Origin: an uncultured Ignavibacteriaceae bacterium | GTDB lineage: Bacteria; Bacteroidota; Ignavibacteria; Ignavibacteriales; Ignavibacteriaceae | DNA: 64,000 bases | Direction: 5' to 3' | Assembly (NCBI GenBank): GCA_964625575.1 | Contig: CAZVBQ010000017.1 | Span: 7,628-71,627 of the forward strand | Shown here: piece after piece, positions 43,648 to 51,890 of the stretch | Numbering within the stretch: the stretch's first letter is position 1 | Layout: the number at the start of each line of letters is the position of its first letter | Position numbers and translations under genes: made by a program | Notes under the pieces: generated by a model | What the model saw: the letters and a program-made list of their open reading frames with translations, nothing else | What the model was told of the DNA's origin: nothing | The model's database searches: none

Positions 43648-45204
43648 TCATTTAACCACTTTGTATACCGAGTCGAGAACGGTTCCATCAACCCAGTTGA
43701 CGATCGCGACCACATGGTCACGATCGAGTAGCGGTTTCTGTGGCGGTCCACCGACTATCTGATACACTTCATCACGGATCTCCTCGATCTTCCTGACCGG
43801 GAGGCCCTTTCCTTCAACCGCTTTAAGCAGGTCTTCCCTTCGCGGATTAATGGCAATTCCCCTCTCGGTAACTATAACATCCACCATCTCGCCGGGGGCA
43901 CAGATGGTTGTTACTTCGTCGAGAATAACGGGGATCCGGTCTCTGAATGATGGAATGGCAAGGATCGAGCACTTTGCCGCAAGGCAGTTCTGCCAGCCGC
44001 CTATTCCATGGAGAAGGAGGCCATCAGAGTGTGAAACCACATTCGCGTTGAAGTTAACATCCACCTCGGTGGCTCCGAGAACCACAGCATCAAGAATCGA
44101 TGAAAAGTTGCCCTTTCCGTGATAATTGTAGCTTGTGAAGGGTGAAGTGTTAACATGACCGGGGTTTTCCCTCATCGAACGGACACCTTCGAGGTCAAAG
44201 GTCTGACCATCAAGAATATAGTCGGTAAGTCCCTCTTCAAGCATCTGAACGAGGTATTTTGTACTTCCACCGCGGATGAAACGGGCTTTTATACCTGTTT
44301 CCTTCATTCTTTCTTTCAGGAACATCGCGAAGGCGAGGGCAGTTCCACCGGCACCTGCCTGAAACGAAAATCCGTCTTTCATTATACCTGAAAGTTCGAT
44401 GAATTTCGCGACATATTCAGCGATCAGAAGTCTGTCGGGCGATTTCGTGATCTCGGTTGTACCGGAGACTATCTTTGATGAATCACCGAGTGAATCAACC
44501 TCGACCACAAAGTCGACATTGTTTCCCTGTATCTGCCAGGGAACACACGGGAACGGAACAAGATTATCGGTAACCACGATGGTTCTGTCAGCGTATTCAG
44601 AGTCAGCGAGAGCGAACCCGAGCAAACCGCAGGCAGCTTGCCCCGTGACACCATTCGCGTTTCCGAAAGGGTCAGCAGTTGGCGAAGCAATTACCGCGAT
44701 ATCTATATGCACTTCACCATCCTGAACAGCCTGGTATCTTCCGCCGTGTGAGCGGAGAACACCAACACCGTTCATTTTACCGAAAGAGGTGAACTTGCCG
44801 AGTGGCCCGTTCATGCTTCCTTCGATGTGGCTGATGGTGCCGTCTTCAAGGTACGGGATCAGGTGCTCATGACACGGGAACGACGCGCTGGGGAACCAGC
44901 GGATGTTCTTCACACCCATCTCTTTGATCGTATCGAAGAGGAGGTTCGTCACCACATCGCCATTGCGGAGGTGGTGGTGTGTCGAGACGGTCATCCCGTC
45001 TTTCAAACCCGCTTTCTCGAGCGCCGTTCTTAGATTCGGTTGCCTCTTGTCGCCATCGGCCGGGTAATCCGAGCACGAGCGGATCGGCGGTTTAGCCTTG
45101 AAACCCTCGGGTTTGTGTTGCCCGACGCCTTTGTAGGGTATCCGTTTCTGTCCGTTAACTTCGGTTGGAACCAACCTTCCGGCGGCATTTTTAATCATTT
45201 CCAT
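43648..45204 (-). CDS. citF: Citrate lyase alpha subunit (citrate CoA-transferase)
   Basis: 518 aa. CitF-like GLKDGMTVSTHHHLRNGDVV and the GGTALAF region. 14-nt overlap with the upstream citDE gene. Confidence 0.85.
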   Translation of the reverse strand: MEMIKNAAGRLVPTEVNGQKRIPYKGVGQHKPEGFKAKPPIRSCSDYPADGDKRQPNLRTALEKAGLKDGMTVSTHHHLRNGDVVTNLLFDTIKEMGVKNIRWFPSASFPCHEHLIPYLEDGTISHIEGSMNGPLGKFTSFGKMNGVGVLRSHGGRYQAVQDGEVHIDIAVIASPTADPFGNANGVTGQAACGLLGFALADSEYADRTIVVTDNLVPFPCVPWQIQGNNVDFVVEVDSLGDSSKIVSGTTEITKSPDRLLIAEYVAKFIELSGIMKDGFSFQAGAGGTALAFAMFLKERMKETGIKARFIRGGSTKYLVQMLEEGLTDYILDGQTFDLEGVRSMRENPGHVNTSPFTSYNYHGKGNFSSILDAVVLGATEVDVNFNANVVSHSDGLLLHGIGGWQNCLAAKCSILAIPSFRDRIPVILDEVTTICAPGEMVDVIVTERGIAINPRREDLLKAVEGKGLPVRKIEEIRDEVYQIVGGPPQKPLLDRDHVVAIVNWVDGTVLDSVYKVVK

Positions 45205-46486
45205 AGGTCACCATCCAGTCTTTTTCGATCAATCCGTTGAGTATGGCAAGTTCGATCACCCTCTCGGCACGTTTAACCACGGGAGGATCGATCATCTTGC
45301 TGCCGAGCGAAACGGCAGCGAGTCCCTTTGCTTTGGCATCTTCGAACGCCAAAACGATCTTCTTCGCTTTCTCAATTTCAGCGGAAGTGGGGGCGAATGC
45401 TGTATGTATCGGCTGGATCTGACGGGGGTGTATGCAACCCTTCCCTTCGAAACCGTATGATTTCGACTCAAGGGTCGATTTAACCAATCCATCCATATCA
45501 CCCACATCGGAGAAGACGGAGTCGATAGCCTGCACGCCGGCTGCCTTGGAGGCGTTAACCACCTGCATCCGTGCCCAGAAGCTCTCGGTTCCTTCAAGTG
45601 TTCTTTCCGCGCCGATGTCTGCTGTATAATCTTCCAGACCGATCGCCAATGAACAAACGAACTTCGATGCCGACGCGATCGCGAACGCGTTGATCGCGCC
45701 CTTGGCACTCTCGATGATCGGCATGAACCAGATGTCATCTTCGATTCCATGCTTTGCTTTCAGTGCCAGCACTTCCTTTTCAACTGCTATTATCTGATCC
45801 GCTTCCTCAACTTTCGGGATGAGGATAAGATTCACCTTGTGTGGTACGACGAACTTGAGGTCTTCCAACCCCATGGGGAGCTGGTTTATCCTCACCATCC
45901 GCTCCGCGCCGTAGAAGTTCACGCTTCTTAAAGCATTTCTGACCAGGTGACGGGCGGCGTCCTTTTCGTCGGGGGAAACGCTGTCTTCCAGATCGAGGAT
46001 CACTCCATCAGGTCCATGAAGACCGGCATTAACGAAGAACTTCGGTTCATTTCCGGGGAGGTAAAGCCTGCTTCTGCGGAGGCGGTTCTTCGGTGTCTGG
46101 GGGATGTTCGCATTAAGGAACGGCATCAGATATTCATCAGTTACAGCAGGGTTCATTCTCTTAACGGCGGCTTCAAACCGGGCGGCGATCACAAATGGGA
46201 GCGCTCCCGCGTCCTCAATCGTGATGGTCACACCTTCAAGCTTGAAGTGAGCGGCGAGCTCCTCCAGCTGTTTCTTTATCGCCTCACCATACAGCGAACC
46301 AACCTTCGATTTTATCAGTAGTGAGTTTTCAGTAGTGAGTAGTGAGGAATTCTCACCACTCGCCACTCGCTTCTCGCTACTGATTTCAATCCAGCAATCC
46401 GATCTTATGGCGGTGCCTCTTTTACCGGCACTTCCTTTTAGCAGCAGATGGTCCTCGCCACTCGCTACTCGTGACTCGCTACTCAT
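45191..46486 (-). CDS. Fusion of citrate lyase acyl-carrier (gamma, CitD) and beta subunit (CitE, citryl-CoA lyase)
   Basis: Residues ~20-115, AGKRGTAIRSDCWIEI...IKSKVGSLYGEAIKKQLEELAAHFKLEGVTITIEDAGALPFVIAARFEAAVKR, align with CitD (AGTLESGDVMIRI...INSSVEKQFGDAI...DDKGALDCILRARLE). The rest, RRSRLYLPGNEPKFF...VILDLEDSV, is a CitE/HpcH-type lyase. Start at ATG 46486 (1 nt after the prpD-like stop) or TTG 46495. Confidence 0.8.
   Translation of the reverse strand: MSSESRVASGEDHLLLKGSAGKRGTAIRSDCWIEISSEKRVASGENSSLLTTENSLLIKSKVGSLYGEAIKKQLEELAAHFKLEGVTITIEDAGALPFVIAARFEAAVKRMNPAVTDEYLMPFLNANIPQTPKNRLRRSRLYLPGNEPKFFVNAGLHGPDGVILDLEDSVSPDEKDAARHLVRNALRSVNFYGAERMVRINQLPMGLEDLKFVVPHKVNLILIPKVEEADQIIAVEKEVLALKAKHGIEDDIWFMPIIESAKGAINAFAIASASKFVCSLAIGLEDYTADIGAERTLEGTESFWARMQVVNASKAAGVQAIDSVFSDVGDMDGLVKSTLESKSYGFEGKGCIHPRQIQPIHTAFAPTSAEIEKAKKIVLAFEDAKAKGLAAVSLGSKMIDPPVVKRAERVIELAILNGLIEKDWMVTYGND
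46316..46382. repeat. Imperfect palindrome of AGTAGTGAG-type words centred on GAATTC, lying in-frame inside citD
   Basis: CAGTAGTGAGTTTTCAGTAGTGAGTAGTGAGG-AATTC-TCACCACTCGCCACTCGCTTCTCGCTACTG uses the same word family as 2013-2037 and 56331-56361. It encodes SSEKRVASGENSSLLTTENS. Confidence 0.6.
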
Positions 46487-46487
46487 A

Positions 46488-50763: not shown

Positions 50764-50771
50764 GAAAATAA

Positions 50772-51890
50772 CTAAATATACTGAGCGATGGCTTCTGCCA
50801 TTTCGAGCGTTTTGGTGTTGCCGCCCATGTCGTAGGTTTTGTATTTGCCCTCGGCGATTACGCGCGCGACCGCGTTTTCAACCTTGTCGGCAAGTTCCTG
50901 TTCGCCGAGCCACTCGAGCATCATTTTTGCAGCGAGAATTGTAGCGATAGGATTAACCTTGTACTGACCGAAATATTTAGGGGCTGAACCGTGTGTCGGC
51001 TCGAAAACGGCAAGTTTGTCGCCGATGTTGCCTGAGCAACCGAAACCGAGACCACCAACCATTTGGGCACAAAGATCGGAGATGATATCACCGAAGAGGT
51101 TTGTAGCCACCAGGACATCATAGTTGTGCGGATTCTTGAGCAGCCACATTGTAATGGCGTCAATGTTGGCGTCATCCATCTCAATCTCGGGATACTCTTT
51201 CCTTACTTCCTTCGCGATATCGAAGAAGAGACCGTCAGTGGCTCTTACAACATTGGCTTTGTGGATGATGGTAACTTTTTTCCGTTTGTTCTTGCGGGCA
51301 AACTCGAAAGCTGCTCTGATGATCTTCTCTGAGCCTTTCTTCGTGTTAATCTTGCAGTTGATCGCGTATTCTTCGGCACCAAGTCCCGCGAAGACATTGA
51401 AAGGTTTAGAGTGTTTAGCGAGCACTTCCGCCACTTCCTGAGGAACGGGAGCAAACTCAACACCGCAATAAAGGTCTTCGGTGTTCTCACGGAAAACGAC
51501 AAGATCGATGTTTTCTTTGTAGTTAAGCGGGTTGCCTTTGTAGCCTTTGGTCGGGCGGAGGCAAGTGTAGAGGTCGAACATCTGGCGCATTCTTACGATC
51601 GGTGATCTGTAGATGAGTCCCTTTCCCTGAAGTTCAGGGATCAGTTCGGCTTCTGAATCTTTTTTAGGTTTTGAAGTGATGGCACCAAACATGGCGGCAT
51701 CAACGTTTTTCAGCAGGTCAATTGTTCTTTGCGGCAACGCGTCGGCTTCAGTTCTCCAGAACTCCCAACCGATGTCACCGTGAATATACTCCGCGTCAAG
51801 TCCGGTCTTGTCAAGAACGATCTTTGCGGCTTCAAGTACTTCAATGCCTATACCGTCACCGGGCAACCAGGCGATCTTGTATTTAGCCAT
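50772..51890 (-). CDS. Isocitrate/isopropylmalate/homoisocitrate dehydrogenase family protein
   Basis: 372 aa. IAWLPGDGIGIEV, substrate loop RSPIVRMRQMFDLYTCLRP, and EPTHGSAP motif. Substrate specificity cannot be decided by eye. Confidence 0.85.
   Translation of the reverse strand: MAKYKIAWLPGDGIGIEVLEAAKIVLDKTGLDAEYIHGDIGWEFWRTEADALPQRTIDLLKNVDAAMFGAITSKPKKDSEAELIPELQGKGLIYRSPIVRMRQMFDLYTCLRPTKGYKGNPLNYKENIDLVVFRENTEDLYCGVEFAPVPQEVAEVLAKHSKPFNVFAGLGAEEYAINCKINTKKGSEKIIRAAFEFARKNKRKKVTIIHKANVVRATDGLFFDIAKEVRKEYPEIEMDDANIDAITMWLLKNPHNYDVLVATNLFGDIISDLCAQMVGGLGFGCSGNIGDKLAVFEPTHGSAPKYFGQYKVNPIATILAAKMMLEWLGEQELADKVENAVARVIAEGKYKTYDMGGNTKTLEMAEAIAQYI

Follow-up and report, generated by a model that had tools for sequence, protein, structure and literature searches.

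A widespread six-gene operon in an Ignavibacteriaceae genome combines a citrate-lyase-type enzyme with PrpD-like, homoaconitase-type and homoisocitrate-dehydrogenase-like proteins and an HD-fold partner

Which reactions are encoded by six minus-strand genes that lie together at positions 43648-51890 of a 64-kb stretch of DNA from an uncultured Ignavibacteriaceae bacterium (the whole stretch is hereafter called the window)? When the open reading frames (ORFs) of the window were assigned to domains with Pfam and NCBIfam profiles, the six genes, all co-directional, were found to encode an Iso_dh-family, homoisocitrate-dehydrogenase-like dehydrogenase (50772-51890, 372 aa, assigned by Pfam, NCBIfam and PDB matches), an HDIG-like HD-fold protein (50045-50590, 181 aa, matched by NCBIfam TIGR00277 and by no Pfam family), a fungal Lys4-type hydro-lyase with fused Aconitase and Aconitase_C domains (48036-50039, 667 aa, hereafter the hydratase), an MmgE/PrpD-family protein with both N and C domains (46488-47855, 455 aa, by Pfam, hereafter the PrpD-like protein), a CitD-CitE fusion consisting of an acyl carrier protein (ACP) and an HpcH_HpaI domain (45191-46495, 434 aa from a TTG start, with an ATG three codons in) and a CitF-type acyl-ACP:tricarboxylate transferase, the alpha subunit (43648-45204, 518 aa, Pfam CitF). 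The families, coordinates and shared direction given in a first-pass annotation, made from the sequence alone, agree with this ORF map. The best explanation of the results below is that the six genes form one operon and a self-contained, widespread pathway module for a tricarboxylic acid. The data show which genes it contains, their families, their conservation and the exchange of parts between phyla, and from these we infer the reaction order, the substrate and the direction.

When comparing the window with 160 related loci, 80 found with its PrpD-like protein and 80 found with a planctomycete PrpD, all six genes were present and co-directional in 78, in three gene orders and in Ignavibacteria, Planctomycetota, Gemmatimonadota, Eisenbacteria and Terriglobia. 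The order of the window was seen in 34 of the 80 loci of the first set, including the Ignavibacterium album type strain and Melioribacter roseus, and 16 loci of this set, mainly from Zixibacteria, contained only the HD, hydratase and PrpD-like genes. The second set had the six genes in 44 of its 80 loci, 38 of them (Terriglobia, Gemmatimonadota and Eisenbacteria) with the order HD-PrpD-hydratase-dehydrogenase-CitDE-CitF and six (Phycisphaerae) with the order dehydrogenase-hydratase-HD-PrpD-CitDE-CitF. The hydratase-PrpD pair was also found in a Calditrichota metagenome-assembled genome (L068). Co-clustering that survives reshuffling across so many phyla shows functional coupling, and this strong conservation of the neighbourhood supports the suggestion of the first-pass annotation that the operon is non-standard and does not consist of housekeeping aconitase and isocitrate dehydrogenase (IDH) genes beside a standard cit locus.

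Modules with exchanged parts were traced from distant relatives of the HD protein. A second LeuCD-type enzyme takes the place of the PrpD-like one in Synergistaceae, Anaerolineales, Acidobacteriota, Planctomycetales and Heimdallarchaeota, and CitDEF is replaced elsewhere by CitF together with Ccl, by CcsAB together with Ccl or by a pair resembling ATP-citrate lyase (ACL), while the HD protein is retained in every variant module found. The Synergistaceae variant consists of GntR, HD, two LeuC/LeuD pairs, dehydrogenase, CitE and a CitF that clearly passes the citF equivalog (656 bits); that of Anaerolineales and Planctomycetales has CcsAB-like and Ccl-like genes, HD, two aconitase-family enzymes and the dehydrogenase; and a Heimdallarchaeota contig holds HD, dehydrogenase, two aconitase-family enzymes and an ACL-like pair. 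Metagenome loci provided hybrids of CitF-like and Ccl-like genes, strings of Ccl-HD-PrpD and, from an archaeon, HD next to an ACL-like pair. As read from these gene sets, the module comprises two hydro-lyases, an Iso_dh enzyme, the HD partner and a putative C-C lyase, for which four designs occur. Conservation and part exchange together argue for a single functional module rather than for genes of the tricarboxylic acid (TCA) cycle that happen to adjoin a citrate-fermentation locus.

The hybrid lyase loci (L234, L240, L280, L288, L290, L292, L294 and L295) contain HD, CitF-like, Ccl-like and fused aconitase-family genes, with a CitF-like transferase 42% identical to CitF of the window and a Ccl-like gene of citrate-synthase fold. 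A search for genome relatives of a truncated Ccl-like gene returned only three loci.

The hydratase scores 861 bits on TIGR00139, the NCBIfam equivalog for fungal homoaconitase (EC 4.2.1.36), and so exceeds the cut-off of 529.9. It contains both the catalytic and the swivel domain (Pfam Aconitase and Aconitase_C) and keeps the three 4Fe-4S cysteine ligands (SCVNS, CGPCIG) as well as the catalytic motifs ASDSHS and GTGSSREQA. Its best PDB match is the large subunit of homoaconitase (HACN) from M. jannaschii (6e-73), and its relatives are labelled 'homoaconitase' by PGAP, the I. album copy bearing the older annotation 'Aconitase A'. By profile it is a fused member of the aconitase family that belongs with fungal Lys4 homoaconitases, and it may act on homoaconitate; the resemblance to homoaconitase that had been noted as an impression holds at the profile level.

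The dehydrogenase scores 308 bits on Pfam Iso_dh. Its top NCBIfam match is the homoisocitrate dehydrogenase (HICDH) AksF2, with 347 bits below the cut-off of 540, followed on the AksF model by 327 bits (cut-off 500) and on the best IDH equivalog by 302 bits (cut-off 510), and it meets no equivalog cut-off of any kind. The top PDB match is HICDH of T. thermophilus (1e-71). Both the dehydrogenase and the hydratase score lower on models for isopropylmalate isomerase (IPMI) and isopropylmalate dehydrogenase (IPMDH) than on the homo models. In IDH, Ser113 and Asn115 (E. coli numbering) bind the gamma-carboxylate; in the motif YRSPIVRMRQ of the dehydrogenase Ser113 is kept and Asn115 is replaced by Ile (SPIV), in both Ignavibacteria subtypes, and the Asn is likewise absent from T. 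thermophilus HICDH. The enzyme is best termed homoisocitrate-dehydrogenase-like: it appears closest to homoisocitrate dehydrogenases, with a family membership at the level of best matches. The corresponding impression in the first-pass annotation stood as regards these best matches, AksF2 and T. thermophilus HICDH, but not as regards any equivalog.

The dehydrogenase of the window is 59-61% identical to the copies in the Anaerolineales and Heimdallarchaeota variant modules and about 52% identical to most Ignavibacteria copies, and among Ignavibacteria its type was found only in L001, L004 and L018. This suggests an in-place replacement by a foreign copy, and a replacement drawn from the variant-module type would argue for equivalence of the window module and the variants. 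At one locus (L060:6214-7938) the dehydrogenase ORF reads into the HD protein to give 574 aa, either a true fusion or the result of a stop codon lost in assembly.

The PrpD-like protein fails the three PrpD equivalogs NF042438, NF006943 and TIGR02330 (84, 81 and 60 bits against 950, 575 and 458, respectively), and neither prpB nor prpC was found in the window or in the module loci. Its top PDB match is a cis-aconitate decarboxylase (CAD, 4e-27). When aligned with human CAD, the active-site set of which we take from the literature to be D93, T97, H103, H159, K207, K272, H277 and Y318, six of the eight residues are kept, T97 being changed to Ile and Y318 to Phe. Copies from different phyla share 73-91% identity, and the relatives of the protein form more than 8000 clusters. 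As judged by its sequence it is a distinct, highly conserved MmgE/PrpD clade and not a PrpD orthologue, so of the earlier label 'MmgE/PrpD dehydratase' the family was correct, but the match to PrpD itself is poor and the nearest structures are those of CAD. Since the PrpD-like protein is replaceable by an aconitase-family hydro-lyase, its role is probably that of a (de)hydratase, and the same interchange argues against an itaconate-forming decarboxylase. We infer that it is the dehydratase half of a two-enzyme isomerase.

The HD protein matches NCBIfam TIGR00277 (HDIG) with 32 bits, and its HD fold is supported by Foldseek with an AlphaFold model of pLDDT 86; the best match was the HD domain of YhaM (TMq 0.64) and no close structural relative appeared. 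The family comprises 144 clusters at E<=1e-30. The non-canonical motif LIDVGK, already pointed out in the first-pass annotation, is a constant feature, the His of the dyad being Ile or Ala (ID/AD) in 53 of 53 aligned orthologues, while distant family members retain the HD dyad. The protein does not contain the full H...HD...H...D ligand set of HD-domain metal-dependent phosphohydrolases. It represents an uncharacterised HD-fold family and belongs to the core of the module instead of merely accompanying it. Other architectures of this family include a fusion of GNAT acetyltransferase with HD, a tandem HD-HD and an HD ORF that continues into the N-terminal part of a homoaconitase-type gene (representatives P0255, P0240 and P0160). 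At L296:10001-13954 the HD gene lies directly upstream of an ATP-citrate-lyase-like pair with no hydro-lyase or dehydrogenase nearby, on a contig that bears the archaeal mevalonate-pathway genes AcnX, UbiD and GHMP kinase; the HD protein thus also travels with a lyase alone.

CitF scores 462 bits on Pfam CitF and passes the equivalog TIGR01584 marginally (509.4 bits, cut-off 501.45). The CitE part matches HpcH_HpaI (169 bits), stays below the cut-off of the equivalog TIGR01588 (279 against 443 bits) and also matches the itaconate-degradation lyase RipC (162 bits), and the CitD part meets Pfam ACP (49 bits) and lies below both NCBIfam citD models (44 against 65 and 33 against 63.5). The CitD serine of citrate lyase carries 2'-(5''-phosphoribosyl)-3'-dephospho-CoA. 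The serine of an RSD motif in the window aligns by eye with Ser14 of CitD and is the predicted carrier residue. Intact orthologues from every phylum retain it (46 rows in one alignment, about 50 in another), the few rows without it being truncated ORFs, mis-called starts or Met variants. As the first-pass annotation had stated, the 64-kb window holds no citC, citG or citX. The CitD loop of the window contains a repeat-derived insertion of ~12-17 residues, and in the relative L001 a longer one is found at the same place; such in-frame repeat-derived insertions in coding regions were seen at 46316-46486 (CitD) and at ~48609-48680, in the interdomain linker of the hydratase.

In the reaction sequence that we propose, the CitD-CitE fusion and CitF would constitute a citrate-lyase-type enzyme acting via an acyl thioester on the carrier serine and interconverting a 2-hydroxy-tricarboxylate with acetate and a 2-oxo-dicarboxylate. 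The PrpD-like protein and the Lys4-type hydratase would each perform half of an isomerisation, one dehydrating to the cis-unsaturated acid and the other rehydrating to the iso-acid, with the HD-fold protein as an obligatory partner, and the Iso_dh enzyme would convert the iso-acid into the next 2-oxo acid by oxidative decarboxylation or, in reverse, act by reductive carboxylation. The substrates may be homocitrate, cis-homoaconitate and homoisocitrate, linking 2-oxoglutarate and acetate with 2-oxoadipate; run forwards this would be an entry to the aminoadipate route free of both ATP and homocitrate synthase, run backwards a breakdown of 2-oxoadipate. We estimate that a reaction of the citrate-lyase type lies close to equilibrium at the 1 M standard state, so cleavage would be favoured at cellular concentrations, and synthesis of a low-flux intermediate is conceivable if an irreversible decarboxylation pulls it.

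The homocitrate/homoisocitrate series is our tentative choice, possible rather than probable. It is preferred because of the Lys4-type hydratase, the HICDH-like dehydrogenase without the Asn of IDH and the two-enzyme isomerisation. An isomerisation divided between two enzymes also holds for 2-methylcitrate, and citrate does not need such a split. Lys4 and Thermus HACN catalyse only the conversion of homoaconitate to homoisocitrate, the isomerisation being split between two enzymes (PMC3556520). Two further observations were counted for homocitrate: diaminopimelate genes and all leu/ilv genes are missing from I. album (PMC3362086), and Caldithrix has an aminoadipate route the middle steps of which are 'scattered' (PMC5317091), the hydratase-PrpD pair being present in the Calditrichota genome L068 mentioned above.

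A number of observations weigh against homocitrate. The small-domain specificity loop of the hydratase, YTYQ, corresponds neither to YLRT of M. jannaschii HACN nor to the IPMI pattern, and the position of Arg85 in T. thermophilus HICDH is Val in the dehydrogenase. I. album requires yeast extract, and its authors saw no alternative lysine route. Rfam models detected tRNAs but no lysine riboswitch, both in the window and in 10 loci that represent six phyla, and a pattern scan found no LysW-like ORF within 10 kb in 295 loci, two LysW candidate ORFs upstream of a planctomycete module having no PDB relatives. The genes citC, citX and citG are also missing among annotated recurrent neighbours and from the fully annotated six-gene loci of I. 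album (L205) and Terriglobia (L210), and this absence of carrier-activation genes is an unexplained feature of the loci. A CstA transporter gene, which 13 loci have within the operon, is more in keeping with catabolism than with biosynthesis, and phosphoenolpyruvate carboxykinase (PEPCK), encoded near the operon in I. album, in L038 and in one planctomycete, fits oxaloacetate and not 2-oxoglutarate. The remaining points are those that speak for citrate: the marginal pass of CitF on the citF equivalog together with the clear one of the Synergistaceae copy, the replacement lyases CcsAB/Ccl and ACL, which are known only as citrate enzymes, the PEPCK neighbours together with acetyl-CoA synthetase near the operon in eight Ignavibacteria loci, and sdhAB preceding the PrpD-like gene in one locus (L071).

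With citrate as the substrate, the first enzyme would be a citrate lyase giving acetate and oxaloacetate, the PrpD-like protein and the Lys4-type hydratase would make up a two-part aconitase and the dehydrogenase would be an IDH. Such a pathway could serve citrate use and glutamate synthesis, the reductive conversion of 2-oxoglutarate (from glutamate) to acetate and oxaloacetate, or an ATP-independent variant of the reverse TCA cycle. T. thermophilus HICDH uses isocitrate well too, which counts for this alternative. The I. album hydratase is annotated as 'Aconitase A', and the published 'complete TCA cycle' may therefore rest on it. For the I. album genes IALB_1146/1147, citrate fermentation or an unconventional reverse TCA cycle was indeed proposed by Liu et al. 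(PMC3362086). However, a single aconitase does both half-reactions, so that a conserved two-enzyme isomerase with an HD protein would be left unexplained, the Asn115 of IDH is missing from the dehydrogenase, and the module also occurs in the aerobic phyla Terriglobia, Gemmatimonadota and Planctomycetota, cultured members of which have ordinary aconitase and IDH. Neither a citrate transporter nor citC/citX/citG was found among the annotated neighbours of the loci. The hydratase is moreover of the Lys4 type, characterised members of which are restricted to homoaconitate and homoisocitrate (PMC3556520), and in a published phylogeny Ignavibacteria sequences are grouped with an aconitate hydratase of C. 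thalassium, the enzyme type being unstated (PMC9560492). On balance we consider the citrate series unlikely, though a serious competitor.

Clearly less probable is another substrate altogether, namely the series citramalate, citraconate and 3-methylmalate (from pyruvate and acetate to 2-oxobutyrate), 2-methylcitrate, or an itaconate route in which the PrpD-like protein would be a cis-aconitate decarboxylase and CitE and CitF would handle CoA or ACP esters. Clostridial citramalate lyase has the same three-subunit ACP design, CitE matches RipC, the PrpD-like protein is closest in PDB to CAD with six of eight active-site residues, and the CstA found in the operon of 13 loci belongs to a pyruvate/peptide transporter family. 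Against these stand the change of CAD Thr97 and Tyr318, the lower scores of the hydratase and the dehydrogenase on IPMI and IPMDH models, the absence of prpB and prpC and the exchange of PrpD, in several phyla, for an aconitase-family hydro-lyase, which is incapable of decarboxylation; the itaconate version was rated unlikely on account of this interchange. In the window the operon adjoins methylmalonyl-CoA genes, which had earlier been read as a clue to the substrate, but of the relatives only the closest, L001, has the two side by side, and the clue was rejected for that reason. The residues tried as substrate discriminators (the SPIV loop of the dehydrogenase, the YTYQ small-domain loop and the CAD set) gave no decisive answer.

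That there is no joint pathway, and that housekeeping aconitase and IDH genes merely lie beside a standard citrate-fermentation locus, is very improbable: the two ~180-nt internal spacers described below could hold separate promoters, sigma-70-like matches being no more frequent than expected by chance (13 seen, 9.2 expected), and the old I. album annotation reads aconitase and citrate lyase, but co-clustering through three gene orders in at least five phyla largely refutes it, there is no canonical orthologue among the six genes except, marginally, CitF, neither the usual cit accessory genes nor a citrate transporter were found among the annotated neighbours, the HD protein is present in every variant, and an RNA-seq contig, as weak evidence, spans the PrpD/CitDE junction.

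When comparing the module with known systems, the upper alpha-aminoadipate pathway of fungi and Thermus, which consists of homocitrate synthase, aconitase with Lys4/LysF homoaconitase and Lys12 homoisocitrate dehydrogenase, shares the Lys4-type hydratase, the HICDH-like dehydrogenase and the isomerisation divided over two enzymes (PMC3556520). It differs in having homocitrate synthase where the module has the citrate-lyase-type ACP enzyme, and aconitase for the first half-reaction where the module has the PrpD-family protein; the HD-fold protein is an addition of the module, and LysW or Lys2-type genes of the lower pathway are not near it. With citrate lyase CitDEF (EC 4.1.3.6) of Klebsiella pneumoniae, E. 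coli and lactic acid bacteria the module has in common CitF, CitE, the CitD carrier domain with its conserved serine and the D-E-F order, whereas its CitD is fused to CitE, both of these are below their equivalog cut-offs and genes for hydro-lyases and a dehydrogenase surround those of the lyase. Unlike loci that combine CitDEF with CitC, CitX and CitG, the annotated neighbours in ~200 relatives include no ligase, holo-ACP synthase, CitG, transporter or oxaloacetate decarboxylase. The 2-methylcitrate cycle (PrpD followed by AcnB, or AcnD and PrpF) likewise combines an Fe-S-independent MmgE/PrpD dehydratase with an aconitase-family hydratase, but the module lacks a PrpD orthologue (84 against 950 bits), prpB and prpC, and its iso-acid would go to a decarboxylating dehydrogenase and not to a lyase. 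The citrate-cleaving enzymes of the reverse TCA cycle, ACL and CcsAB with Ccl of Hydrogenobacter, are of the kind held by the distant variants beside aconitase-family and Iso_dh genes; the lyase of the window, in contrast, is of the ATP-independent ACP type, the hydro-lyases are two and of homoaconitase and LeuCD types, and the hosts are mostly heterotrophs. Among PDB sequences the PrpD-like protein comes closest to CAD/IRG1 and IDS epimerase of the MmgE/PrpD superfamily, at an identity of only ~25%.

The module is thus built from known enzyme superfamilies, with two uncharacterised clades, the PrpD-like one and the HD one. A literature search gave no mention of 'homocitrate lyase' or 'homocitryl-CoA' and nothing joining PrpD with homoaconitase and homocitrate, and the only prior mention found concerns I. 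album, whose CitE-CitD fusion and CitF have been described (Liu 2012, PMC3362086). It is possible, though doubtful, that the module represents an unrecognised pathway of many phyla, most of them uncultured, in which a citrate-lyase-, Ccs/Ccl- or ACL-type enzyme makes or cleaves homocitrate without homocitrate synthase, the PrpD clade is the missing dedicated homocitrate dehydratase and the HD family is an essential third component of the isomerase or lyase.

The gene set is kept in hundreds of species of at least eight phyla, common wastewater, soil and sediment bacteria among them, and has been assigned no pathway. In current annotation its members appear under the separate names 'citrate lyase', 'homoaconitase', '2-methylcitrate dehydratase', 'isocitrate dehydrogenase' and 'HD protein', so that genome models may wrongly credit a TCA step, citrate fermentation, the methylcitrate cycle or lysine auxotrophy. 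If homocitrate is the substrate, the missing dedicated homocitrate dehydratase would be at hand together with a new start or reversal of the aminoadipate route, that is, either an energy-saving entry to lysine biosynthesis in bacteria that have no diaminopimelate pathway or a new conversion of 2-oxoadipate into 2-oxoglutarate and acetate. If it is citrate, a new two-part aconitase would be coupled to ATP-free cleavage of citrate, which bears on the unconventional reverse TCA cycle of Ignavibacteria. In either case a function would be gained for the PrpD-like clade and the HD family, and the question can be put to the test in two cultured hosts, I. album and M. roseus.

As to the layout of the operon, the description 'closely packed' in the first-pass annotation fits three junctions (one gap of 5 nt and overlaps of 8 and 14 nt) but not the two others, which are spacers of 181 nt between dehydrogenase and HD (50591-50771) and, by the ORF coordinates, of 180 nt between hydratase and PrpD-like genes (47856-48035). 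The former contains an inverted repeat of CGCAAAG-type units, with 28-nt arms (50604-50631 and 50736-50763) that are 89% complementary. A single 188-nt contig from metatranscriptome RNA-seq crosses the PrpD/CitDE junction, weak evidence for co-transcription. Upstream of the operon, in a 235-nt AT-rich spacer and 58 nt from the first ATG, the perfect palindrome reported earlier was recovered by reading the sequence as an inverted repeat at 51948-51967, AATGTAACA-AA-TGTTACATT, with 9-bp arms extendable to 11; it is a candidate operator of a dimeric regulator. The terminator proposed for the operon end was likewise recognised, as an intrinsic-terminator-like hairpin on the minus strand, AACGGACTG...CAGTCCGTT followed by TTTTT (43585-43617).

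The neighbouring operon is by its domain content of the methylmalonyl-CoA-decarboxylase type, as had been claimed (epimerase, carboxyltransferase, OAD_gamma, biotin carrier and OAD_beta), and has a stem-loop with 17-nt arms at its end (52057-52106). Two possible regulators flank the 3' end of the six-gene operon, a PAS-GAF hybrid sensor kinase (38595-41927, plus strand) and a receiver-kinase-receiver protein (41916-43421, minus strand), and 15 Ignavibacteria loci, as well as the I. album type strain, have a homologous kinase of ~1110 aa next to the operon. The closest genome to the window is CP129491, and DNA of the window occurs in wastewater and biofilm metagenomes.

Several other genes were observed around the module in related loci. 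A PNP_UDP_1 phosphorylase lies near it in 15 loci (14 from Terriglobia and one from Eisenbacteria, e.g. L210:285-2716), an adenosine-deaminase-family gene in nine Terriglobia loci and a GDPD phosphodiesterase after the PrpD-like gene in two Zixibacteria-type loci (L037:11398-12168). Genes resembling LutA, LutB and LutC (CCG, LUD+Fer4 and LUD domains) are situated just upstream of HD-hydratase-PrpD in ~5 Zixibacteria-type loci (L036, L041 and L030), and in Phycisphaerae (L135:4041-6121) hydratase-HD-PrpD is followed by genes for a protein like the D-component of 2-hydroxyglutaryl-CoA dehydratase and an activator ATPase of BcrAD/BadFG type. In the I. album loci L053 and L205 the intergenic spaces of the operon are insertion hot-spots, where four-helix-bundle ORFs (TIGR02436), a PDDEXK_3 ORF, a 962-aa methyltransferase-like gene and an ORF resembling a REP-associated tyrosine transposase are found between or beside the six genes. 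Elsewhere in the window, at 2358-5712 on the minus strand, two adjacent genes with GatD_N+Asparaginase and GatB_N domains (Pfam) resemble GatD/GatE, the archaeal-type Glu-tRNA(Gln) amidotransferase, here in a bacterial genome.

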